The notes: a model not told the origin generated them from the letters alone. 32,000 bases of DNA from an archaeon (GCA_041657425.1 JBBABY010000003.1:60001-92000), one strand, 5' to 3'. Counted from the stretch's first letter, positions 120 to 32,000 are shown. A program made the numbers and translations.

Positions 120-782
120 TCAATTTTTAATCCTTACTCGAAATCCATCAAAGATTTCGATCATCCTTATATCATATAAGAAATCTTCAAATGGTTTGGG
201 GTCTGTTTCATCTGGCAACATAGATTTTTCTTTTGCAATATCTAGATATCTAAACCACTTTCCAATATTCTCATTTGTTACTTCATCTTCCGGTGGTTCA
301 AATTCAATTTTGTGGTTCATCAACATTGTAACACCAAATTGAAGCGTTCGCATGGTTGCTGCTTTGCTTTTCATAGGGTCTTTTACTGTTGCGTGTTTTA
401 TTGCGTCGTTAAGTTGTGAATGTGCCATTCCATTGATTGACGCATAAGATGATTTGGAAAGATTGTTAATTGCAATTTCGCGGAGTTTTACTAGCCATTC
501 GCTATTCTTATGAACGATTGGTGAACAAACACTCCATATTGCATTCACATTGCCTTTCTTAAGCAGATAAACAAGATGCCCAATTTCCATATATTGTGCA
601 TCAATTTCTTTACCTTCGTAAATGTAAGATTTTGCTGCGCGTGTCTTTTCAAATGTGCTGGTTCGTAAATACTCCAATGATGGTTGCTGAAATACATGAA
701 ACAAATCATAATCCGAATCTGGTTTATTCATCCCCCACATGCGGGAACCTACTTCGGTGGTGAAAAGGTAATAGACGGTCAT
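120..782 (-). CDS. Pol-beta superfamily nucleotidyltransferase (PF10127/RlaP-like predicted nucleotidyltransferase)
   Basis: 220-aa ORF. N-terminal GSRMWGMNKPDSDYDL fits the hG[GS]x9-13Dh[DE]h signature. Family assignment is from memory of the motif layout. Confidence 0.6.
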   Translation of the reverse strand: MTVYYLFTTEVGSRMWGMNKPDSDYDLFHVFQQPSLEYLRTSTFEKTRAAKSYIYEGKEIDAQYMEIGHLVYLLKKGNVNAIWSVCSPIVHKNSEWLVKLREIAINNLSKSSYASINGMAHSQLNDAIKHATVKDPMKSKAATMRTLQFGVTMLMNHKIEFEPPEDEVTNENIGKWFRYLDIAKEKSMLPDETDPKPFEDFLYDIRMIEIFDGFRVRIKN

Positions 783-1801: not shown

Positions 1802-2545
1802 TTAATGCCACAATTTTTTAAATTCGTTGATTTGTGATTGATCTCTCTTGAAATAAATATGCGCACTCAAACTTGTAATTTCCATCCACCCAAATTCGAC
1901 ACCACCCAATTTATCAACTACCATTTTCTGTAAGATCATTAAAGCATATGCATTGCTCCCCCACGCGCTTAACATATCATTAGACCTAAATAACGCGTGC
2001 ATGTTGAGTTTATTATTTCTAATAAAAAACAACAAATGATTTAAACACGGGGGATCTTCTGCCATTTCGAATCCCGCCGGTTCAAACAAACTTACAACTG
2101 CGCGCCTTGTTGTAGGTGTTTCGGTGAGTTTCCTTACAACATATTCAATCTGGTCGGTTCCATCTCCTTTCCCGTTTCCATAAGGCCAGTCTATACGTAT
2201 CAATTTGTTATTTTTATCATATACTTTAAATGGAGTCCCTTCTGGGTAATCAAAGATAAGATTTGAGTATAAATAAGAAAAATCTGGTTTTCCTTCTTTA
2301 TCCACAAATGGGCGAGGTGTCATAACTTGCCGCGCATACATCTCTAATGCTTTTGCACCAAACTTAAATGCGGGAGAAGAAAAAGGAGGAATATTGGGTT
2401 TGTTTATGTGGATATTTACAGGCTCGGGGTATTCAAATATAGATTCTCCATCTTCCGTAACAATATCGTTATAATCGCCGGTCATAATTAACTTAACAAC
2501 TGCTTCGTGCGCGTCAGCAATATTATCAGTAATTATCGTGTGCAT
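1802..2545 (-). CDS. thyA: thymidylate synthase ThyA-family enzyme (archaeal-type; dUMP methylase or dUMP hydroxymethylase)
   Basis: TTRRAVVSLFEP (Arg-Arg phosphate clamp), PPCLNHLLFF (catalytic Cys), and RSNDMLSAWGSNAYAL with Asn 11 residues after the Arg, as in E. coli R166/N177. Confidence 0.85.
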   Translation of the reverse strand: MHTIITDNIADAHEAVVKLIMTGDYNDIVTEDGESIFEYPEPVNIHINKPNIPPFSSPAFKFGAKALEMYARQVMTPRPFVDKEGKPDFSYLYSNLIFDYPEGTPFKVYDKNNKLIRIDWPYGNGKGDGTDQIEYVVRKLTETPTTRRAVVSLFEPAGFEMAEDPPCLNHLLFFIRNNKLNMHALFRSNDMLSAWGSNAYALMILQKMVVDKLGGVEFGWMEITSLSAHIYFKRDQSQINEFKKLWH

Positions 2546-5906: not shown

Positions 5907-6320
5907 TCAACACTCCTTTGTTACACTACTATTGTCTCCAAAGTATTTATACTTTATTAATCGCGTTCTACATTCCGGGCATCGGAACGCAAGAATATGG
6001 ATGTTCATCTCGGTCATTTCAGCATGTCTTTCATCAGATATGTCGCCGTATCTTTCCAAGTATGAATTGAGAAGAATGATGTCATCTCCAGTAGGGTTCG
6101 CGTATTTCCAATCAAGATCACGTCTCGTATATTCTTCCACACATTCACAAATTCTTTTGTTGGTTAGTAATAGATCTATACAACCATGATCCAAATATCC
6201 CTTTATAGAATTACCTTTTCGCATGGAAGGTAACAAGAGATTATTAAATTCGGCGAGCACAGAATTGAGGTGTTTATTACAAAGACATTGTGGGTTGATA
6301 CCCGGGAATAAATTAACCAT
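5907..6320 (-). CDS. possible pyrimidine-dimer DNA glycosylase (T4 endonuclease V / Pyr_excise-like)
   Basis: N-terminal INPQCLCNKHLNSVLAEFNNLL resembles the L..qHL..E.rEl start of the family, and KGYLDHG resembles the GY.nHP block. This is the first gene of the block, 20 nt from its TATA box. Confidence 0.45.
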   Translation of the reverse strand: MVNLFPGINPQCLCNKHLNSVLAEFNNLLLPSMRKGNSIKGYLDHGCIDLLLTNKRICECVEEYTRRDLDWKYANPTGDDIILLNSYLERYGDISDERHAEMTEMNIHILAFRCPECRTRLIKYKYFGDNSSVTKEC

Positions 6321-6340: not shown

Positions 6341-6385
6341 AGTATTTATAGATTTTTACACGCGTCCTAGAAAACTATAAATACT
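6341..6385. promoter_or_regulatory. palindromic divergent promoter
   Basis: AGTATTTATAG (6341-6351) and its perfect reverse complement CTATAAATACT (6375-6385) flank a 23-nt spacer containing ACGCGT (6360-6365). The left box is 20 nt from the minus-strand ATG at 6320. The right box drives the plus block through an SD-containing leader. Confidence 0.6.
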
Positions 6386-10067: not shown

Positions 10068-10157
10068 ATACCCTACTCTTTTTAGTTGTTGATTTTTCCA
10101 TAAATAAAACTGACCGACCGAAATATTTTTATACTTATATATCTAATAGTAGGGTAT
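10068..10157 (+). promoter_or_regulatory. recombinase promoter bracketed by a perfect 10-bp inverted repeat
   Basis: ATACCCTACT (10068-10077) and AGTAGGGTAT (10148-10157, overlapping the ATG at 10156). TTTTTATACT (10126-10135) lies exactly 20 nt upstream of the ATG. Confidence 0.55.
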
Positions 10158-10806
10158 GAAGAATATTTATGGTTATGTCAGGGTTTCAACCAGATCCCAA
10201 AATTATGATTTGCAAGTTGAAGGTATACAAGCATTTTGTAAAATGCGAGAATACAATCTTGTAAAAGTTTTTGCAGACAAGGCAACTGGAAAAGATATGG
10301 ATCGTGAACAATATCAAAAAATGATTGAAATGCTCATCGATTTAAAAAATCCACAGTCTATAGATGCAGTTGTTGTTACCAAACTCGACCGTGTTGGGAG
10401 AAATGTTAATGATTTGGTTGGGTTTGTAAAAAAACTTGAAACCAATCATATTGATTTTGCTACAACATTGGAAAGCGTAGATACGACAACCTCACAGGGG
10501 AGATTATTTTTTCATTTTATAGCTGCTATTGCAGAATATGAAAGAGAATTGATTAACGAGAGAACTGAAGCCGGATTAAAAAAATATATGGCGAATGGGG
10601 GAAGAATGGGGAAACCTAAAATTAAAATCAATATGGATGAAGTAAATGAACTATTAAGACTTGAAATCCCCAAAACCGTTATAGCAAGAAAACTTAAAAT
10701 CAGCTTGCCCACACTATATGACAGAATAAATGAGGAGAAGGCGGAAGCGTTGAATGCACAAAGGAAGAAGGATATCGAAACATCGGAATCAGTAAAGGGC
10801 AATTGA
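10156..10806 (+). CDS. small serine recombinase (resolvase/invertase family, C-terminal HTH)
   Basis: YGYVRVSTRSQNYDLQ (catalytic Ser), VVVTKLDRVGRN, GRLFFHFIAAIAEYERELINERT, and the C-terminal HTH IARKLKISLPTLYDRI. Confidence 0.9.
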   Translation: MKNIYGYVRVSTRSQNYDLQVEGIQAFCKMREYNLVKVFADKATGKDMDREQYQKMIEMLIDLKNPQSIDAVVVTKLDRVGRNVNDLVGFVKKLETNHIDFATTLESVDTTTSQGRLFFHFIAAIAEYERELINERTEAGLKKYMANGGRMGKPKIKINMDEVNELLRLEIPKTVIARKLKISLPTLYDRINEEKAEALNAQRKKDIETSESVKGN

Positions 10807-10811
10807 ATATA

Positions 10812-11225
10812 ATGGACGACGGCACCGGATTCATTTATATTGTAGAATTAACCGAAAGATCAAATATTTATAAAGTTGGTTCTACAAATAATATGTATAA
10901 CAGATTACAAACATTGAGGCGAACACATACTTTGGGTGATGAAAACACTAAAAACGGGGGAATATATTTAAAATTCCTATCATTTGCTAGGGATAAATCA
11001 AAAATTGAACGTCTTGTACATAGTGTGTTTCATGAATATTCATATTGTGAACAATTAAAAACAGACGTGTGGAGTTTGAGAGGAGATGAATTATATGAAC
11101 TTGCGGGTGATAAAGAATATGAAGATTTGAAACGCTTTATTATTGAAAATGGCGGAGATGACACCCATAAGTTGGTCTACGAACAATTGAATCAAATACC
11201 CAAAAAATATGGTGGGTTAAAATAA
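10812..11225 (+). CDS. T5orf172 / MUG113-type (GIY-YIG-like) domain protein
   Basis: GFIYIVELTERSNIYKVGSTNNMYNRLQTL ... IERLVHSVFHEY matches the T5orf172 pattern. First ATG is at 10812; the track begins at a TTG at 10803. Confidence 0.55.
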   Translation: MDDGTGFIYIVELTERSNIYKVGSTNNMYNRLQTLRRTHTLGDENTKNGGIYLKFLSFARDKSKIERLVHSVFHEYSYCEQLKTDVWSLRGDELYELAGDKEYEDLKRFIIENGGDDTHKLVYEQLNQIPKKYGGLK

Positions 11226-11540: not shown

Positions 11541-12557
11541 TTATTTGCTTCTCTCCAACTCCAAAAACCACTTCGGGCAACAATCCGGATATGGAATCTT
11601 TGGTCTCCGTTTAATACAGAATGCTTTGAAATCATTATATTTGAATATACCCGGCTGATTACACCATGCCGAAAAATCCATATATGTTTTTGTGTTTTCT
11701 GATTGCCAGCAGGTCAAATCGCGCATAAAATATGGCAAAACCTTATGTTCCTTGCACCACAGAATACGATAATACACGTCGTTAATTATATCCATATCTG
11801 GATGACAATAGAGGAAGAACTTTATTTTCCAAGGTTGCGGGATATATTTTTTAACTATTGCTAATTTCTCTTCTATCAACTTTTGATCTTTAATATTATC
11901 GAAGGCGAATATATATTCTCCGATGTAATTAAGTTCCGATAACAATTTTGCATTTTCTTCATTGATAAGTCTTATATCCAACCCTTGATTAAACTGGCAT
12001 GGAAACTGCAAATTTACAAGTTCTCGCAAGAATTTCTTATGATCTATTAGACCCAAGAAGTTATTATCCAAAAACTTCATTTTCTTATAATTATAGTCAG
12101 GATCAATCAATGAAACAACAGTTTGTATCTCACGATGAACATCCCCCTCTTTTTGCGGAACTACGCAGAAATAGCAATTTCTAAAGCATCCACGCGATAT
12201 GAATCCATAAAACGTGTCGTTGTCTGGATAAATTGAATAATCCGGTTTGCATTTATCCACTTCTCGTGGAAGTTTTTTCTTTATATCAAATCCAGTTCCA
12301 CCGCAATCAACTTTACAATCACCATTAATAATTTTTAAATGCTTCGGCGTTGTATCAAAAATAGAACTTATAAATGCCTTATCATACCCATTACAATCAA
12401 CTTGCTTTTCTTTTGGTTTCCCGTAGACGGGTATTCCAAGTTTCGCCAATGTTACAGAATCACCATTCTTTTGAAAATATGTAGATAACCGCATTAACGC
12501 AAGGTTTGGAATATTGCTATCGCAATCAACTAATAATATTTTACTCAAACGATTCAC
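11541..12557 (-). CDS. radical SAM enzyme with N-terminal Rossmann/B12-binding-like region
   Basis: SRGCFRNCYFCVVP is a CxxxCxxC cluster motif at about residue 123. N-terminus ILLVDCDSNIPNLALMRLSTYFQKNGDSV. GTG start 22 nt downstream of its own TATA-like box. Confidence 0.8.
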   Translation of the reverse strand: MNRLSKILLVDCDSNIPNLALMRLSTYFQKNGDSVTLAKLGIPVYGKPKEKQVDCNGYDKAFISSIFDTTPKHLKIINGDCKVDCGGTGFDIKKKLPREVDKCKPDYSIYPDNDTFYGFISRGCFRNCYFCVVPQKEGDVHREIQTVVSLIDPDYNYKKMKFLDNNFLGLIDHKKFLRELVNLQFPCQFNQGLDIRLINEENAKLLSELNYIGEYIFAFDNIKDQKLIEEKLAIVKKYIPQPWKIKFFLYCHPDMDIINDVYYRILWCKEHKVLPYFMRDLTCWQSENTKTYMDFSAWCNQPGIFKYNDFKAFCIKRRPKIPYPDCCPKWFLELERSK

Positions 12558-12579
12558 CTAGTTATGTATATGCTGTCAT

Positions 12580-12590
12580 AGTATTTAAAG
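12580..12590 (-). promoter_or_regulatory. TATA-like box (CTTTAAATACT) for the radical SAM gene
   Basis: 22 nt upstream of the GTG at 12557, in the 40-nt gap after the upstream stop codon. Confidence 0.45.
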
Positions 12591-12597
12591 ATCGCGA

Positions 12598-12831
12598 TCA
12601 CTTTTTCTTCCTCATCTTCCTTACCATCTTTCCAGTAAACATCTGGGCTGAATATACCGAAAACCCGATTCTACACACAAGACATTCGCGCATATCATCC
12701 TCTTTCGGTCGGAACAAAATGATATTCGCCGCTCCACAAGTAGGACATTTTACTACTAGTCCGTCACACTTTGAAACATCCTTGTGTTCTGAATTCTGTT
12801 TTGGGCATCGACATTCATATTCGTATTCCAT
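12598..12831 (-). CDS. zinc-ribbon protein with basic tail
   Basis: CRCP ... CPTCG ... CLVC, followed by the KMVRKMRKKK tail. 77 aa. Confidence 0.55.
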   Translation of the reverse strand: MEYEYECRCPKQNSEHKDVSKCDGLVVKCPTCGAANIILFRPKEDDMRECLVCRIGFSVYSAQMFTGKMVRKMRKKK

Positions 12832-12981
12832 CTACTCCACCCCGAAATCTAACAACTGCTCATGGAGTTGCTGGTTTTCTCCTTCTAATTCCTGAATACG
12901 TGCAAGAAATTTCTTCTTCTCATCGCGCAGATTTTGAAGTTCCATCATCGCTTCATGAATTGCTTGTGCATTTGATACCAT
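12832..12981 (-). CDS. 49-aa coiled-coil protein (below track cutoff)
   Basis: MVSNAQAIHEAMMELQNLRDEKKKFLARIQELEGENQQLHEQLLDFGVE. AGGAG SD upstream; its stop abuts the next ATG. Confidence 0.4.
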   Translation of the reverse strand: MVSNAQAIHEAMMELQNLRDEKKKFLARIQELEGENQQLHEQLLDFGVE

Positions 12982-13019
12982 CTTTCACATTCACTCCTTG
13001 TATAATACTACTACGCGTT

Positions 13020-13556
13020 CTATCTATTTATACTTATCTCATCCCCCCACGAATCATACCCATTTCTCTTCTCCCTTGCAAAAAGTTCTATCTTTGGGTT
13101 TAAATTTGCAACGGCGGGTTCAATCAATTGAAAAAATTCTTCCGGCTTTTGAGAATGATTTCTCACTTTAGATTGAATGAAGTTTGGTTTTTGTAGACGA
13201 AATGCTTTAACATTTCCTCTTACACCCACGAGACATTCTTCAACTTGACCACGGAACCAATATCCCATTCCGAGAGACATTATCTTACGCCAATAAATTT
13301 TTGTCTTATACTTAAATCCCCACGCTTTCATAACTTCAAATGTATAATCAGCAAGTGGTGTGGTTCCCCATAAGAATAAAACACAATTCTTTTCACAAAT
13401 TGTGGATATAGGAAGTGAACAAATTTCTTCCAATGACATCGTAGGATATTTCGCACTAGAACCGGATTTCATAGATCTGCCCGTGTTTTTATTACGATAT
13501 TGCCAAGGTGGATCTGCAACAATCACACTATACTTTTTATCTGGAAATGGTATCAT
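13020..13556 (-). CDS. MT-A70 family N6-adenine methyltransferase
   Basis: VIVADPPWQY (DPPW catalytic motif) and NHSQKPEE. The ATG at 13556 (MIPFPDKKY) forms an ATGA overlap with the upstream 50-aa ORF; the track start at 13595 has no such support. Confidence 0.85.
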   Translation of the reverse strand: MIPFPDKKYSVIVADPPWQYRNKNTGRSMKSGSSAKYPTMSLEEICSLPISTICEKNCVLFLWGTTPLADYTFEVMKAWGFKYKTKIYWRKIMSLGMGYWFRGQVEECLVGVRGNVKAFRLQKPNFIQSKVRNHSQKPEEFFQLIEPAVANLNPKIELFAREKRNGYDSWGDEISINR

Positions 13557-13705
13557 TTCTTCCCCTTTCTCGCTTTCCGTGCCTCGTCTGCACACTTATG
13601 CTTACAATAAATCGCCCCATCCTTATTCTGTGCCCTTCGGCGTTTTGCGTCGCTTGCTTGTATCTTAAACCTCTTGTGGCAGTGTGAACAGAAGATCCAG
13701 ATCAT
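13553..13705 (-). CDS. 50-aa FCS/TRASH-like zinc-finger protein with basic tail (below track cutoff)
   Basis: MIWIFCSHCHKRFKIQASDAKRRRAQNKDGAIYCKHKCADEARKARKGKK. CxxC-x-K-x-F ... YCxxxC is the same module repeated in 19480..20589. ATGA overlaps at both ends. Confidence 0.45.
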   Translation of the reverse strand: MIWIFCSHCHKRFKIQASDAKRRRAQNKDGAIYCKHKCADEARKARKGKK

Positions 13706-13890
13706 AACTCCTCCCACACAACCAACTCAAATTTCCGTCTCGCACTTCTCAAATTCTCTTTCATACTTTCCGGTGTCTCTGGCGAATTAAGATATTTATC
13801 AATAATTTTAATCACGTTTGCAGAACCAGATGCCGATAGTATTTCATTACTAAATTTTAATATAAAAATCTCTTCGTCCATGCTATTCAT
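13702..13890 (-). CDS. hypothetical protein (first gene of the methyltransferase operon)
   Basis: 62 aa. ATG lies 21 nt downstream of CTATAAATAG (leaderless geometry). Confidence 0.5.
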   Translation of the reverse strand: MNSMDEEIFILKFSNEILSASGSANVIKIIDKYLNSPETPESMKENLRSARRKFELVVWEEL

Positions 13891-13911: not shown

Positions 13912-13921
13912 CTATTTATAG
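13912..13921 (-). promoter_or_regulatory. TATA-like box (CTATAAATAG, self-complementary)
   Basis: 21 nt upstream of the ATG at 13890. Flank resembles the 6341 box (CTATTTATAGATTT). Confidence 0.5.
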
Positions 13922-13945: not shown

Positions 13946-14512
13946 TTATTGATAGTTGAAAACTTCCATCCACACAATCCTGCTACGATCAGTGTCAATT
14001 TCGACATCAACAAGACCATTTGCATGAGCTGGAGCTATAACAGTCAGTTCCGTGGGACTAACGATGGTAAATATTGTTGGAACGCCACCAAATGATGCAT
14101 TTGTAATGGCGTCAAGATCTGTGCCCGTAATACTTACTGATGAACCAGCATTACCATATTTCGGTGTAATATTGGTAACGCGCGGAATAATCATCTTGTA
14201 GTAAGTGAATGAATTGTCCAATTTGACAATATTGTTATCGTTATTAATAGTAACATTAATAACACCATCTGATTGTGGGGGTGGAATCGGTGCAGTCATA
14301 TAAGTGGAATTCACAAATGTTGCAACGACTTCGGTGTTGTTAAACGTTACATTATTCACGCTGGAATTTACAAATCCATCGCCGTTGATTTTCATAAGAC
14401 CTCCAAAACGTGAAGGGCAACTTGACGGTACGATACTGGTAACATTCATTGCTAATGAAGCAGGAATTACCAGAAGAATAGCTAAAAGAATAAATAGGAT
14501 TTTGCTTTTCAT
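13946..14512 (-). CDS. secreted IPT/TIG-domain protein, N-glycosylation sequon-rich
   Basis: Signal peptide MKSKILFILLAILLVIPASLA. Second half PRVTNITPKYGNAGSSVSITGTDL ... FGGVPTIFTIVSPTELTVIAP fits the IPT/TIG pattern. Eight N-x-S/T sequons in 188 aa. Confidence 0.6.
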   Translation of the reverse strand: MKSKILFILLAILLVIPASLAMNVTSIVPSSCPSRFGGLMKINGDGFVNSSVNNVTFNNTEVVATFVNSTYMTAPIPPPQSDGVINVTINNDNNIVKLDNSFTYYKMIIPRVTNITPKYGNAGSSVSITGTDLDAITNASFGGVPTIFTIVSPTELTVIAPAHANGLVDVEIDTDRSRIVWMEVFNYQ

Positions 14513-14532: not shown

Positions 14533-14542
14533 TGTATTTAAA
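14533..14542 (-). promoter_or_regulatory. TATA-like box (TTTAAATACA)
   Basis: Exactly 20 nt upstream of the ATG at 14512. Confidence 0.5.
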
Positions 14543-16861: not shown

Positions 16862-16974
16862 TGTATTTAATGGTTTTCCTTCGGTCTTCCTTTTCGCGCG
16901 CGGGTCAAAGATAAGTCGCATGAGTATATTAAAATTGATATATAATGTATGTGTATACACAAACTTTAAATACT
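16862..16974. promoter_or_regulatory. divergent promoter pair
   Basis: Minus-strand TTAAATACA (16862-16870) is 23 nt from the ATG at 16838. Plus-strand CTTTAAATACT (16964-16974) is exactly 20 nt from the ATG at 16995. Confidence 0.55.
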
Positions 16975-19479: not shown

Positions 19480-20589
19480 ATGCCTAAAGTTACTCGTATT
19501 TGTTTGATTTGCGGAAAGGAATTTCAAATAACTAATAGTATCGCATCTAAAGGAGGGGGTAAATATTGTTCTCGCGAATGTAATGATAAATCAAAAATAA
19601 AAGAAAAAATTGAAAAGGTATGCCCTATATGTGGGAAAAAATTTGATGTTCGTGCAAGTGAAATATCTAGAGGTGGGGGCAAATATTGTTCTATAGACTG
19701 CTATAATAAATCACGAGCAATGAAACGAATTAAAAAAATATGCCCGATTTGTGGAAAAGAATTTGAAACGTTTCTTTCATATGTAGAAAATGATAAAGGC
19801 AAATATTGTTCATTAAAATGTAGTATCGAATCTAAAAAACAAAGAATAAAAAGAATATGCCCAACTTGTGGCAATGAATTTGAAACCACCGAATCTTCAA
19901 TCTTAAATGGGAGGGGGAAATATTGTTCTCGGAAATGTGTAAATAATATACCAACTACAAAAGTGAATAAGATTTGTATTGTTTGTGGTAATAAATTTGA
20001 AGTGTATCCTTATAGATCCGAATCGGCACTTTATTGTTCGTATGATTGTTATCACAAAGATTCATCAATACGTTTTATCGGAGAAAACAATCCAAATTGG
20101 ACGGGTGGAACCAAAGAATATTGTGAAAAATTTAACAATCCTTTTAAAAGAAGGGTCTTGGCATTCTGGTATGAAAATAATCAAAATATATGTCCCGTAT
20201 GCGAAGAACCAATAATAGAGGAAACTCCGCATTGCCATCACTCATATTATGATAAAAAATCGTGTTGTTTGACGACTTCCGATGGAAAATATTTTTGCAA
20301 TCTTGGGATAAAAAATAATGAAAAAACATTTGAAATAATTGGAGATCCAAACAAATTTGTCCCTCTTCATTGTAGTTGTCATGGTAAAACAAACAACAAA
20401 AAAGAACGTAAATATTATGCGCGCAAATTTGAAACGATTATAAATGAAAAATTTGGGGGAAAATCTTATTTTACAGAAGAAGAATATAAAGAATTTTTAA
20501 TCTATCATCCAGAATGGAAAATACCATATAAACATAATAAAAAAATTATTTCACCGGCGTGTGCGCCAGTATTTTCATCACAAACATGA
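19480..20589 (+). CDS. protein with five tandem FCS/TRASH-like zinc-ribbon modules and a C-terminal HNH-like endonuclease motif
   Basis: Five copies of [IV]CxxCG[KN]xF-x(11-14)-YCSxxC, then CPVCEEPIIEETPHCHH ... PLHCSCHGKTN (HNH-like). The last 44 nt overlap the convergent gene 20546..21499. Confidence 0.6.
   Translation: MPKVTRICLICGKEFQITNSIASKGGGKYCSRECNDKSKIKEKIEKVCPICGKKFDVRASEISRGGGKYCSIDCYNKSRAMKRIKKICPICGKEFETFLSYVENDKGKYCSLKCSIESKKQRIKRICPTCGNEFETTESSILNGRGKYCSRKCVNNIPTTKVNKICIVCGNKFEVYPYRSESALYCSYDCYHKDSSIRFIGENNPNWTGGTKEYCEKFNNPFKRRVLAFWYENNQNICPVCEEPIIEETPHCHHSYYDKKSCCLTTSDGKYFCNLGIKNNEKTFEIIGDPNKFVPLHCSCHGKTNNKKERKYYARKFETIINEKFGGKSYFTEEEYKEFLIYHPEWKIPYKHNKKIISPACAPVFSSQT
19498..20080 (+). 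repeat. intragenic tandem repeat, about 117-120 nt unit, five copies
   Basis: Units start at 19498, 19618, 19738, 19855 and 19972 (the last degenerate). DNA-level conservation is visible around ATATGCCC..TGTGG.AA.GAATTTGAAAC and GGCAAATATTGTTC. Confidence 0.7.
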
Positions 20590-28291: not shown

Positions 28292-31200
28292 TTATTTCTT
28301 CCCCTTCCCTTTCTTCTTCAGCGGCAACGAAGAAGGTAATGATATTGATTTGAGTCCCGTATTTGAAGTAGACTTGTGTGTTAACCCTGCGGGCATTTTA
28401 AACTGTGCGAACTGTGGTGTTGATACTTTTATAGCCACACGCGGGGCCGCTTTAGCGGGTCTCTGTTGCGTAGACATATTGAACTTTGGCAATGACACTT
28501 TTGGTGCTGCGCGTGGTGCAGTGGGCTTCTGTGGCACTTTGGCGGGTCTTTGTGTAGATTGTTTAACAGCAACCTTTGGTTTCGGTGATGCGATTCCAAA
28601 TGTAGGCAATGATGATTTCTGACCAAATACAATGTTTGAACCGGCTTTCAAGGCTTTTGCTGTAGCTGTTGCTGCTTCATAAGGGGTAAAGGGATAAGTA
28701 AATACTTGTTTGTGCTTCCTAAATCTTCTATCAAATCCTCCGCCACCCGCTCCACTAGATAACGCGCCTCCAAACAATAATGCCGATGGTATTTTACCGG
28801 ATTCTGGAGATTCTATAGGTGGTGAATATGGCGGGGGAAATCCATATCTAGGGGAGACGGTGGAAGGAGGTATAGATGCAGGAGAAGCCGGTATAACAGA
28901 TAAAGATCCAAACGCCGGTAAAGATATAGATGGTATTAAAGAAATTGATGGACTGGGTTCTGATGGTGTAGAAGGACTCGGTTTGGAAGGGGGTGTAGAC
29001 TCTGATGGGGTAGTGGCAGAAGGCATCGATACCATTTTTGACACTTCCGACGATACAGAAATTGATTTGGATGGTATCGATAATGATTTTACTTCAAGTT
29101 TAGACTCCGAGGCAGATAAGTAAGATAATGATTTTGGTGTGGGTTTAATTTGTGAAAATTTTGATAATGATGCAGCAGATACGCGCCCGCTCGTAGTACT
29201 CATTTTGCCAACTGACAGACTTGTGATTTTTTGTGATGGTGTTTCGACAGATTTTATTTTTTGTACCCCTACACTATATGACGGTATCAAATTTAATGCG
29301 GGGGATGGTGTTAAAATACTACCCAACCCCATACTCCTTAAAATAGGTGAAGGTGTGGGTTGGTATTCCCCCAAATTGATAGAAATTGGAGAAGTGCCTT
29401 CAAAGCGTGTTTGGTATGCAGCACGAACACTTTTAGATGTTTCCGGCCCCCACGTCTCTAACCATGCGTTTAGCTTGTTTTCAGCTACATTTGCCTTATT
29501 ACGTGTGCTAGCACTTTCTGATTTTTTTAGTGTTTCAATATTAGCACGCTCTCCGAAGTAATAATCAGGAATATCTTTTACCCTTCCCTCAAATCGTGGG
29601 ACAAGTCTCCCCGAAACAGTAAACGGTTGGATATCAGAACCAGCATACGCCTTACTTGTCACGCTTTTTACATCTGGTGTATATTCAATCGGACCTACAA
29701 GTTTTCTACCTACTTGTTCCGAAAAAGATATAACCGGCACCCCTTCTTTCGTCATGACCGAAGGTTCTATCCTCATTCCAAGCCCGGTATATTTCGTGGA
29801 TATTGGGGAAGCAATATTAGCACCCTGCGCCATCAATTCTTCCGGTGAAGGATTTTCGTTGTGAATATCAAAAAGTTTTGAATTTCCAATTTTAACAGTG
29901 GCAAGATTTCCATTTATATCCACGGAGGCAACATTTTTACCGGCGGCACGATTAATTGAATTTGTTACATCTTTTGCAAAATCCACAGATTGTAATTTTC
30001 CTTTCTCTCCTGATGGAAGCATAATATCTAAATCGTTTGCCGGTCTTCCCAGAGTTGGATACCCTATTTCTTTTCCAACCCCACGCTGAACCGATGAACC
30101 GTATAACCGCGCTTTGTAGTCTTTCAAAGTGGCAACTATACTATTGGCAACTTTTCCAGAATTTGGAATATTATAAGTTTCCACAACATCACGGACGGCA
30201 GGAGTAACTTCATGAAGTTGAAGTTTTGAACCACTGGTTGTCGCACGAATATCAAGCCCCAATTCTATTTTGGGCTTTTCGATGCCAGCAAGACTAGAAA
30301 CCATATAGGTTTCAAGTGGGGTTTTTGGTGCAAATGTTGAAATCTTGCCGAATGTATCTGGCGCAAATCTAAATTCCTCTGATGACACTTTAGGAGAACC
30401 TAAAAATAACCTCGTCCCTTCAGGAGATGTTTTCAATCCCCCAAATATTGTAGATACTCTTTCTATCTGACCAGAAGCACCAGATGTTTTCGATATCCCA
30501 AGTGTGGTATATTTTGATACTGGAAGCACATCACCGGAAGATGGAACGATAGTAGCTCGTCCTATTGATACTTTATAGGGGAAAATTTCTGTGGGGGTTT
30601 TTGCAAGAAGTCCTTCGCCTTTGTAATAACTTTCTGTCTGTATTGGGGTAATACCACCATATCCCAACCCAAACCCTCCTAACATTGTACTAGTTTTTGC
30701 AATCTCCCCACCTCTTGCAAATGCGGTAGGTTGGTTGTAAATATTTAATGCGGATTCTCCCAATATAGCTGTACCAACACCCACTTTTGCAATATTTCCT
30801 ATACCACTAATTAACGGAGCACTAGAATATTCACCCAGTTTTGCAATGGCAGGAATACCACTTTCCGCTGCTTTTGTTACACCCATTCTTAAAAGATTTT
30901 CACCATATCCCAATGCGGCACCAGTAAGATATGATTCCGATGCTATTTTTGCAATGTCTAGCGGATGCTGTTGCAATTCTGAATATACCCCAAGTGATGT
31001 ATCAGAAATTTGACTTAAAACATCAGTCTTTTTCCCGATATCCATCTGTGTTTCTGATGATAAAGATGGAAGTAAATTTGATATGTTTTTTTGTACAGAT
31101 TCATAAACGCTAGGTTCAATTGTTGTTCTTTCAGATGATAATGTATAAGTTTGAGGTGTGGGTTTATAACCCGTTGGTGCTTGTGAAACATATGGAGATG

Positions 31201-32000
31201 GTAGATTAATGGCATAACTTTCTTTAGTTGTAGTTGAACCAAACCCTGCCGTTCCCTTCGGTGCAAGCCCCACTTCTGCAAGTAAATTTGTACCAATATT
31301 TGATAAGAAATTTATATCAGATGGTTCAGATTTTGTCGTAACACTTTCAAGTTTATACGAACCCGGAACGGCTGCTAATCCATTGCCTTGACTTATTATT
31401 GATGCACTACCCGGTACAACATACAACCCACCAAGCGTGCCCGGACCAGTTACGCCTTTTGGTGTAATCGTAGGAACCACAGAAGTAGAAATCTGCGTCG
31501 CGGGAGTCACAGTCTGTGCTATCGGAACCGCCGCCCCGGATGGTGAAATAACCACGGGGGTATATGCCGCGCCGCCTTCCTGTTTAAACCCACTAGGAGT
31601 AAGCGTACCCATCCCCAACTGCACCCCCGGCATTTCCGCAGCCATAGCACCAAATCCACCACCAACACGGGAAATATTAACACTGTGTAGACCACTAGTG
31701 GGGGTAACAGTCGGCGTTTCTACCATTCTTGCCGAACCCGGCACAACATATAACCCGCCAAGCATCGAAGTATCGGGTTTCGCAGAACTAACCTTTGCCG
31801 ATTCCGGAATATTAATCGCACCCGTTATCCCACTCGGCCCCATCGTCATTATTGCCGGTGATTCCGCAGATACTTTATACGGTGCGTTTGCAAGCGGCAT
31901 TTCGGATTTAGGTAAGTTTACTCCTTGCGGATTTACATAATTAGCAAGATTTAACGGATTTGCATATGTGCTTAATCTTGCTCCGGTGGATTCAACCGTC
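28292..32000 (-). CDS. giant Pro/Ser/Thr-rich protein (partial, N-terminus beyond right edge)
   Basis: The 1,202-aa track ORF starts at Met 31900, but the frame has no stop through 32000, so the protein exceeds 1,235 aa. Internal repeat GGLYVVPGSA occurs twice. PS-rich linker (SKPSPSTPSEPSPS). Basic tail ending KKKGKGKK. Confidence 0.8.
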   Translation of the reverse strand, partial: TVESTGARLSTYANPLNLANYVNPQGVNLPKSEMPLANAPYKVSAESPAIMTMGPSGITGAINIPESAKVSSAKPDTSMLGGLYVVPGSARMVETPTVTPTSGLHSVNISRVGGGFGAMAAEMPGVQLGMGTLTPSGFKQEGGAAYTPVVISPSGAAVPIAQTVTPATQISTSVVPTITPKGVTGPGTLGGLYVVPGSASIISQGNGLAAVPGSYKLESVTTKSEPSDINFLSNIGTNLLAEVGLAPKGTAGFGSTTTKESYAINLPSPYVSQAPTGYKPTPQTYTLSSERTTIEPSVYESVQKNISNLLPSLSSETQMDIGKKTDVLSQISDTSLGVYSELQQHPLDIAKIASESYLTGAALGYGENLLRMGVTKAAESGIPAIAKLGEYSSAPLISGIGNIAKVGVGTAILGESALNIYNQPTAFARGGEIAKTSTMLGGFGLGYGGITPIQTESYYKGEGLLAKTPTEIFPYKVSIGRATIVPSSGDVLPVSKYTTLGISKTSGASGQIERVSTIFGGLKTSPEGTRLFLGSPKVSSEEFRFAPDTFGKISTFAPKTPLETYMVSSLAGIEKPKIELGLDIRATTSGSKLQLHEVTPAVRDVVETYNIPNSGKVANSIVATLKDYKARLYGSSVQRGVGKEIGYPTLGRPANDLDIMLPSGEKGKLQSVDFAKDVTNSINRAAGKNVASVDINGNLATVKIGNSKLFDIHNENPSPEELMAQGANIASPISTKYTGLGMRIEPSVMTKEGVPVISFSEQVGRKLVGPIEYTPDVKSVTSKAYAGSDIQPFTVSGRLVPRFEGRVKDIPDYYFGERANIETLKKSESASTRNKANVAENKLNAWLETWGPETSKSVRAAYQTRFEGTSPISINLGEYQPTPSPILRSMGLGSILTPSPALNLIPSYSVGVQKIKSVETPSQKITSLSVGKMSTTSGRVSAASLSKFSQIKPTPKSLSYLSASESKLEVKSLSIPSKSISVSSEVSKMVSMPSATTPSESTPPSKPSPSTPSEPSPSISLIPSISLPAFGSLSVIPASPASIPPSTVSPRYGFPPPYSPPIESPESGKIPSALLFGGALSSGAGGGGFDRRFRKHKQVFTYPFTPYEAATATAKALKAGSNIVFGQKSSLPTFGIASPKPKVAVKQSTQRPAKVPQKPTAPRAAPKVSLPKFNMSTQQRPAKAAPRVAIKVSTPQFAQFKMPAGLTHKSTSNTGLKSISLPSSLPLKKKGKGKK

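Follow-up and report, generated by a model that had tools for sequence, protein, structure and literature searches.

The present analysis concerns a run of six genes on the minus strand, between positions 13890 and 11541 of a 32,000-nucleotide stretch of DNA catalogued as archaeal (GCA_041657425.1, JBBABY010000003.1:60001-92000; hereafter the window), which includes an MT-A70 N6-adenine methyltransferase, a radical S-adenosylmethionine (SAM) enzyme and four small open reading frames (ORFs), named here orf62, Zn50, cc49 and Zn77. A preliminary description, made from the sequence alone, had read these genes as one multi-component nucleic-acid modification system. Comparison with related genomes leads us to favour, with moderate confidence, another explanation, in which the region is a mosaic accessory-gene slot filled with independent cargo, located on a roughly 139-kb virus-like or extrachromosomal element with archaeal-type TATA promoters. 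The independence of the MT-A70 and radical SAM modules is well supported by the sequence comparisons, and the chance that the radical SAM enzyme modifies DNA is, within this explanation, about even.

Genes following Zn50 in syntenic genomes

Five syntenic relatives (L088, L090, L238, L239 and L243), all sharing the flanking backbone, for example a Metallophos gene, were compared with the window in regard to what follows Zn50. In the window, MT-A70, cc49, Zn77 and the radical SAM gene come, in this order, after this small zinc-finger gene. In L088, whose radical SAM protein is 83% identical to that of the window, and in L243, whose protein falls into the window copy's 90%-identity cluster, Zn50 is followed by the radical SAM gene only, and MT-A70, cc49 and Zn77 are not present there. 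Conversely, only MT-A70 follows in L090 (89% identical to the window protein) and in L238 (a strong match, phmmer E 1.8e-112), while in L239, whose Zn50 is 72% identical, the place is taken by an unrelated 436-aa N6_N4 DNA methylase. Both enzymes together are thus found in the window only. Furthermore, DNA homology between the window and L088 ends inside Zn50 and restarts exactly at the Zn77 stop codon (12600), spanning from there the palindrome GATCGCGATC, a TATA box and the radical SAM gene. Because homology resumes at this point and runs through all these parts, the radical SAM gene is, as judged from the alignment, a self-contained cassette comprising palindrome, TATA box, Shine-Dalgarno sequence and gene. 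MT-A70, cc49 and Zn77 would, by the same comparison, represent an independent insertion, or their lack in L088 an independent loss. In a wider survey of 152 non-redundant loci carrying the same radical SAM family, an MT-A70 gene lies within two genes of the enzyme at one locus, which is this window. The preliminary description had suggested examining whether the linkage is kept in relatives, and had named its loss among the findings that would speak against a joint system. The linkage is not conserved, since the two enzymes are separable in the five syntenic relatives and the small ORFs proposed as their partners are not kept, and the six-gene system does not survive this comparison.

Such an organization resembles the "moron" or accessory hot spots of phages, where cassettes with their own promoters are inserted between convergent blocks that are conserved, and where close relatives differ in having them or not. 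It differs from them in that the promoters of the window are of the archaeal TATA type, and in that the gene directly after Zn50 encodes a SAM-dependent enzyme in all six genomes.

The predicted promoter of the radical SAM cassette is the TATA-like box TTTAAATA at 12582-12589 (minus strand), found by motif scan and kept in L088 and L243. The box with the next 25 nt is nearly identical in L088 and conserved in L243, which exceeds the conservation of the radical SAM coding sequence (about 80%). Directly upstream of the box, between it and the Zn77 stop codon, lies the perfect 10-bp palindrome GATCGCGATC (12590-12599), unchanged in L088, where it stands after the Zn50 stop codon, while L243 keeps GATC only; the palindrome may serve as a site for a regulator or mark the junction of a cassette. 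In the whole window the motif TWTAAATA occurs 33 times against 11.9 expected, a count reached in 0 of 100 shuffles, and it is located 22-24 nt 5′ of the start codons of several first-in-block genes (examples at 5944-5951, 6343-6350, 12582-12589, 13913-13920, 14535-14542 and 16965-16972). A scan of the window for sigma-70-like promoters and intrinsic terminators showed no enrichment. Spacing of 22-24 nt is characteristic of archaeal TATA-box promoters with leaderless or short-leader mRNAs. As the distance between box and start fits such promoters, the TATA-like box that the preliminary description had placed at 12580-12590 was well founded, and its call of an archaeal type was correct.

On the other hand, the single operon envisaged there has to be given up, as two further boxes of the form TATAAATA were detected by the same scan. 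One, at 13913-13920 (minus strand), lies 22 nt before the ATG of orf62, a predicted archaeal-type promoter in a leaderless layout. The other, at 13025-13032 (minus strand) inside the 3′ end of MT-A70, stands 41 nt before the ATG of cc49, is followed by a Shine-Dalgarno-like GGAGTG, and may serve as a separate promoter for cc49 and Zn77. With additional TATA-like boxes preceding orf62 and cc49, the gene run looks, at the level of sequence motifs, like several transcription units rather than one operon.

In other respects the preliminary reading of the genes was accurate. ORF calls and inspection of the sequence recovered all six co-directional genes at the coordinates it had given, as well as both ATGA overlaps, between orf62 and Zn50 and between Zn50 and MT-A70; its identification of the components as MT-A70, radical SAM enzyme and small zinc-finger and coiled-coil ORFs was likewise correct. 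All on the minus strand, these are the lineage-specific orf62 (13702-13890, 62 aa); Zn50 (13553-13705), a conserved backbone gene for a 50-aa C2-(C/H)-C zinc finger with a basic tail; MT-A70 (13020-13556, 178 aa), an orphan beta-class methyltransferase with a DPPW motif; cc49 (12832-12981), a 49-aa coiled-coil ORFan with generic coiled-coil matches; Zn77 (12598-12831), a 77-aa cysteine-rich ORFan with one CxC and two CxxC motifs and a basic tail ending in KMVRKMRKKK; and the radical SAM gene (11541-12557, 338 aa if read from GTG 12557). When codon usage was scored with the window's long genes as training set, the values were above zero in frame and below zero out of frame for orf62 (+0.28 in frame), MT-A70, cc49 (+0.24), Zn77 (+0.10) and the radical SAM gene, with the Lys/Arg-rich Zn50 as an exception that scores poorly and draws its support instead from the purifying selection described below. 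The full Zn50 ORF comprises 54 aa (13553-13717), and the ATG at 13705, giving 50 aa, was taken as its start because five homologues share it. The radical SAM protein probably starts at TTG 12548 (335 aa) rather than at GTG 12557, given that AGGTGA precedes the former, the latter is out of frame in L088, the L243 gene starts at TTG (there preceded by AGGAGG), and NCBI annotates 335 aa. Of the preliminary description of this protein, the CFRNCYFC cluster motif stands, at residues 124-131, while its length of 338 aa is less likely than 335 aa.

The encoded proteins

The methyltransferase carries VIVADPPWQY and matches Pfam PF05063 over profile positions 1-172 of 172 (E 1.5e-33), in agreement with the preliminary assignment to the DPPW MT-A70 adenine methyltransferases, and it belongs to PHROG 359, "DNA methyltransferase" (E 1.3e-62). 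Among solved structures, ciliate MT-A70 and METTL3 come closest to it. Members of the family are common in viral contigs, 236 relatives having been found, and in its DPPW motif, full-length PF05063 match and size the window protein resembles the orphan phage MT-A70/beta-class N6-adenine DNA methyltransferases of PHROG 359 with no notable difference. It is ordinary for its kind.

Among the small ORFs, only Zn50 is conserved. An exhaustive HMMER search of 1.84e9 representative proteins with orf62 returned orf62 itself only, and one weak homologue was found at the same position in L238 (E 1.8e-5). Zn77 has no homologue but itself among 5.8e9 proteins, and cc49, which forms a protein cluster of one member, has none in 237 related loci. 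On these searches orf62, cc49 and Zn77 appear to be essentially ORFans, that is, not conserved partners of either enzyme. Zn50 has five homologues, 72-77% identical and under strong purifying selection; for example, L088 and L243 differ in 18 codons synonymously and in 1 non-synonymously. Its third ligand is Cys in the window and His in the homologues, and its sequence shows no change that goes with the kind of enzyme encoded downstream. It is restricted to one virus lineage (three protein clusters) and absent from the remaining roughly 150 radical SAM loci and from 79 MT-A70 loci; likewise, of 80 MT-A70 relatives searched, only the syntenic L090 has a conserved small zinc-finger ORF 5′ of the methyltransferase gene.

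The radical SAM protein adds a divergent new member to PHROG 9298 ("radical SAM domain protein"), a viral family that is catalogued but functionally uncharacterised. It matches the family profile at E 5.3e-60, residues 6-315 aligning with profile positions 2-293 of 305. The cluster motif C124-FRN-C128-YF-C131 (CX3CX2C) was compared in 139 family sequences, 24-83% identical to the window protein: the three cysteines are conserved in 100% and F130 in 98%. As these three cysteines are the only invariant ones, a second Fe-S cluster is not a feature of the family. Further family motifs are the invariant loop GC-x3-C-xF-C-xVP-x2-KEG, FNQGLDIR and FAFD. The Pfam Radical_SAM model PF04055 scores 17 bits against the window protein, below its cut-off of 29.5, and is matched weakly by 41 of 42 homologues (best E 6.8e-6), so that the assignment rests on PHROG 9298, the invariant CX3CX2C and the predicted fold. 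In the AlphaFold model (mean confidence, pLDDT, 94.9), an N-terminal Rossmann-like domain (roughly residues 6-100) precedes the radical SAM core, consistent with the Rossmann/B12-binding-like region noted in the preliminary description. A Foldseek search of the PDB with this model gave nothing at E≤1e-3; the best matches were radical SAM structures of SuiB (probability 1.0, E 8e-3, about 190 columns), a weak similarity, and a fold search against viral models yielded generic radical SAM, MtaB-like and COG1032-like matches. In sequence searches of the PDB the protein alone had no match, and a profile of the 42 sequences had matches to the cluster loop only, at E>0.07.

Members of the family are compact, of about 300-340 aa. 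A few forms of 436-469 aa carry extensions without a Pfam domain, and no informative domain fusions were found among the PHROG 9298 homologues. The homologues amount to at least 2337 protein clusters in a word-seeded search, with at least 578 viral-contig matches, and they occur in Bacteroides phages (LoVEphage and relatives), Clostridium tetani phage phiCT453B, Oscillospiraceae phages, Methanomassiliicoccales viruses and Marinitoga camini virus 1. Contigs of metagenome-assembled genomes with homologues derive overwhelmingly from anaerobes of both domains. To LoVEphage QVQ57207.1, phiCT453B gp19 and vir335_00053 of a Methanomassiliicoccales virus, all of PHROG 9298, the window protein is 27-36% identical (tblastn). 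Unlike other members, it falls into a divergent subclade whose carrier elements measure 110-175 kb and have archaeal-type promoters; no other copy was seen beside MT-A70.

Curated profiles match the family weakly, all far below the family cut-offs: MiaB/RimO in 37 of the 42 members, TIGR04013 in 25 (best E 5e-7), an MtaB-like profile in 18 and methyl-coenzyme M reductase (MCR) glutamine C-methyltransferase in 16. With the class B B12-binding radical SAM enzymes (TIGR04013, the MCR glutamine C-methyltransferase TIGR04014, BzaD, HpnJ and PhpK) the window protein shares the order of a Rossmann-like N-terminal domain and a radical SAM core, together with a similar N-terminal pattern ILLVD...IPNLALMKLS. 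However, it scores about 19 bits against cut-offs of at least 250, is 100-300 aa shorter, and has no solved class B structure among its top Foldseek matches. In regard to MiaB, RimO and MtaB, the loop GC-x3-C-xFC-xxP-xx-G aligns with RimO and MiaB structures, TIGR00089 is matched weakly in 37 of 42 members, and an MtaB-like viral model reaches a TM score of 0.55, but the family lacks the auxiliary-cluster cysteines and the TRAM domain, and E-values are 0.03-0.3. A methylthiotransferase identity was rejected, as no cysteine of the N-terminal domain is conserved above 12% and TRAM is not matched.

A further comparison is that with gp53 of phage M6, a radical SAM isomerase of thymidine hypermodification resembling spore photoproduct lyase (SPL). 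PMC8989533 presents it as the earliest case, and the only one by then, of a radical SAM enzyme demonstrated to install a DNA modification. It is likewise encoded by a virus, and its cluster motif begins at about residue 125 (PMC8989533), compared with 124 here. On the other hand, M6 gp53 models on spore photoproduct lyase, M6 was not retrieved by tblastn with the window protein, and gp53 works within a cluster of 5-hydroxymethyldeoxyuridine kinase, amino-acid transferase and pyridoxal-phosphate enzyme that is absent around the window gene. An SPL/gp53 type was rejected, with no SPL structure in the top 50 Foldseek matches to the PDB and TIGR03886 matched by 1 of the 42 members at E 0.044. The preliminary description had doubted an identity with QueE, viperin, ribonucleotide reductase (RNR) activase or Cfr/RlmN, and in this it was right: no curated family reaches its threshold, the Foldseek matches are weak, and for QueE, NrdG, viperin and Cfr/RlmN the window protein has no curated match at E≤1, stray matches among the 42 members being confined to QueE (2) and NrdG (1). 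An NrdG-like RNR activase had also been considered on account of an NrdD fragment near the gene in one relative, and was dismissed because the cluster lies at residue 124 behind a Rossmann domain and no NrdG profile matches. The rSAM/DUF483 module of a Thermus phage, and a citation in a paper on an anaerobic digester, proved unrelated to PHROG 9298.

Genomic company and the carrier element

At the 152 surveyed loci the neighbours of the radical SAM gene vary, but all lie within DNA replication/recombination modules. The commonest recognisable ones are DNA methylases, namely ParB-fused N6_N4 and C5 methylases, and further neighbours include PAPS-reductase-like proteins, SSB and an endonuclease-I-like protein. 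A DNA methylase is located within four genes on either side at 34 loci. Methylase density falls from 4.4% of genes at a distance of one to two genes to 0.4% beyond 12 genes (41/1086 versus 33/2065, Fisher p 2.7e-4). A C5 methylase is adjacent at 13 loci, whose radical SAM proteins have a median pairwise identity of 36%, which argues that this adjacency does not go back to one inherited event. In LoVEphage a Dam methylase is encoded two genes downstream of the radical SAM gene, and RtcB is also a neighbour; distant long forms of the enzyme stand beside ThyX, an SbcC-like ATPase and an ORC/Cdc6-like protein. In the Oscillospiraceae phage NatCom_21982 (L001, 1997-6905), overlapping genes encode a MetK-like protein, a ParB/N6_N4 methylase, the radical SAM enzyme and a C5 methylase. 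This island is compact and SAM-centred, its MetK-like product being a 260-aa protein with the N-terminal domain of S-adenosylmethionine synthetase and its C5 methylase comprising 605 aa. A role as a SAM-depleting anti-restriction enzyme is unlikely, given the frequent co-location with SAM-dependent methylases and with the MetK-like gene.

The window matches a metagenomic contig of 138,947 bp, and other assemblies contain contigs of 138,929 and 138,951 bp that encode identical proteins, one copy being binned at NCBI as "Candidatus Paceibacterota bacterium" and another as "archaeon". The near-identical lengths and the inconsistent binning suggest that the contig is probably a complete viral or extrachromosomal genome that was mis-binned. 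Provided that the ENA contig is collinear with the window, the latter's first ~119 bases fall past the end of the former, which hints at circular permutation. Among the syntenic relatives, L090 is a 112.5-kb IMG/VR viral contig, and L239 and L243 measure 127.9 and 134 kb; IMG/VR contigs carrying more distant relatives of the MT-A70 gene reach 176 kb. No GenBank phage was matched by the window in a Megablast search, and a scan for tRNAs found none.

Besides many ORFans, the window encodes a resolvase, a T5orf172 protein, a Metallophos phosphoesterase, a thymidylate-synthase-like protein and an RlaP nucleotidyltransferase. The serine resolvase (216 aa) and an overlapping T5orf172/GIY-YIG-like gene (140 aa) lie on the plus strand at 10156-11225, converging on the radical SAM gene, and since they are absent there in L088, L090 and L243, they represent a separate insertion into the same hot spot. 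On the other side of the run, at 13946-14512 (minus strand), a gene with its own TTTAAATA box encodes a protein of 188 aa, which contains two IPT/TIG domains and is predicted to have a signal peptide; this gene occurs in the window lineage only, inserted together with orf62 between Zn50 and a conserved 87-aa gene. Both this pair and the pair of resolvase and T5orf172 are insertions or deletions specific to the window lineage.

Several genes farther away were also recorded. The thymidylate-synthase-like protein (1802-2545, minus strand) matches the C-terminal half of the Pfam model only and, to judge from this match, could be a thymidylate synthase or a pyrimidine hydroxymethylase; the RlaP-family nucleotidyltransferase is encoded at 120-782 (minus strand), and a PTH2 peptidyl-tRNA hydrolase was called nearby on the parent contig (L084). 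A 369-aa protein at 19480-20589 (plus strand) combines several zinc-finger repeats with an HNH endonuclease family match (PHROG 1271, E 6e-36), and its fingers match the small PHROG 9706, which is also weakly matched by Zn50. A 1202-aa ORF at 28292-31900 (minus strand) has no Pfam or PHROG match.

Alternative explanations and significance

According to the explanation favoured here, the slot would lie at the 3′ end of a conserved leftward gene block whose backbone ends with Zn50, and would accept after Zn50 interchangeable SAM-dependent cargo in the form of MT-A70, an N6_N4 DNA methylase or the radical SAM cassette. The window would then have stacked MT-A70, the two lineage-specific ORFans cc49 and Zn77, and the radical SAM cassette in series. 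As its family suggests, MT-A70 most likely methylates the element's own DNA to N6-methyladenine (m6A) and thereby allows escape from host restriction. In the radical SAM enzyme, one [4Fe-4S] cluster bound by CX3CX2C would cleave SAM reductively to the 5′-deoxyadenosyl radical, and the N-terminal Rossmann-like domain, of the B12-binding/MiaB branch, may bind a cofactor or the substrate. Most likely, the enzyme would make a further modification in DNA or nucleotides, independent of that by MT-A70, and so protect the element, a reading favoured by its place in a methylase slot, by the replication modules in which the family resides and by its enrichment beside unrelated classes of DNA methylases. 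Cobalamin-type C-methylation is a possible chemistry, suggested by the superfamily branch, by the anaerobic, corrinoid-rich hosts and by the slot held in common with N-methylases.

Several observations weigh against parts of this explanation. No methylase lies within four genes of the enzyme at 118 of the 152 loci, and the complete phiCT453B genome, in which the enzyme is present, has no annotated methylase at all, so that the link to methylases is thematic and not obligatory. The enrichment statistic is itself partly biased, as the methylase seeds were taken from near neighbours. The use of cobalamin is a guess, because Pfam B12-binding PF02310 is detected in only 1 of 42 members (E 0.007), and we found no characterisation of PHROG 9298 in the literature. 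Sharing of the slot may reflect a mere insertion hot spot between convergent blocks, where the resolvase and T5orf172 are also found. Finally, the archaeal status of the host rests on promoter architecture only, with conflicting NCBI bins.

It is also possible, though rather less probable, that the radical SAM enzyme acts on RNA (tRNA or rRNA, like the distantly related MiaB/RimO branch), on protein, or on a pool of nucleotides or small molecules, its gene then being an auxiliary metabolic or anti-defence one. Profile matches to RNA and protein modifiers, weak but consistent, the MtaB-like protein among the best viral fold matches and the lack of a nearby methylase at most loci are in line with such a role, as are neighbours such as ThyX and thymidylate-synthase-type nucleotide enzymes, and RtcB in LoVEphage. 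However, the profile matches concern mostly the cluster loop, the missing auxiliary-cluster cysteines and TRAM domain speak against a methylthiotransferase, and both the consistent replication, recombination and methylase neighbourhoods and the position of the enzyme in a methylase slot point towards DNA. Alternatively, Zn50 could be a DNA-targeting or regulatory partner of whichever SAM-dependent enzyme follows it, the unit then being Zn50 plus an interchangeable SAM enzyme. Such an enzyme stands right after Zn50 in six of six genomes (MT-A70 in three, N6_N4 methylase in one, radical SAM in two), in the methylase cases Zn50 is translationally coupled to it or abuts it, and the strong purifying selection and basic tail would suit such a partner. 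We nevertheless regard this as quite improbable: Zn50 is nearly identical whichever enzyme follows, which argues against enzyme-specific contacts, it is confined to one virus lineage and missing from the other radical SAM and MT-A70 loci, and it may simply be the last backbone gene ahead of an insertion hot spot.

The joint system of the preliminary description, in which MT-A70, the radical SAM enzyme and the small zinc-finger and coiled-coil proteins would form one multi-subunit DNA or RNA modification system, for example by radical chemistry on m6A, appears very improbable. Its appeal lies in tightly packed, co-directional genes with two ATGA overlaps, in the use of SAM by both enzymes and in the frequent proximity of the radical SAM family to DNA methylases. 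Those methylases, however, are of classes that are not related to one another and that modify different atoms (C5, N4/N6, Dam, MT-A70), and MT-A70 itself adjoins the family at a single locus. The closest relatives carry the two enzymes separately in the same slot, the radical SAM gene has its own conserved promoter, cc49, Zn77 and orf62 are ORFans, and phiCT453B manages without an annotated methylase.

With independent cargo as the preferred explanation, the six-gene module dissolves into a stack of separate cargo genes, with no new multi-component pathway, and what remains is a pointer to a very large virus-borne radical SAM family that crosses the bacterial-archaeal divide, lacks a close relative among solved structures and has members in the company of DNA methylases and replication genes. 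A broader proposal, which we put forward tentatively and consider unlikely as it stands, is that PHROG 9298 comprises stand-alone radical SAM DNA modifiers, such as cobalamin-type C-methylases or enzymes of other C-H functionalisation of a base, used by viruses of anaerobic bacteria and archaea against restriction, interchangeably with classical methyltransferases or on top of them. The syntenic genomes with MT-A70 only, radical SAM only or both constitute a natural swap series of ready comparators that would make the function of the family testable. If the enzyme is a DNA modifier, the means by which viruses counter restriction would gain a new chemistry, and a new base could be sought in the viromes of gut, rumen and sediment. 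If it acts by itself, it would be only the second kind of radical SAM enzyme known to introduce a DNA modification and the first to do so alone.

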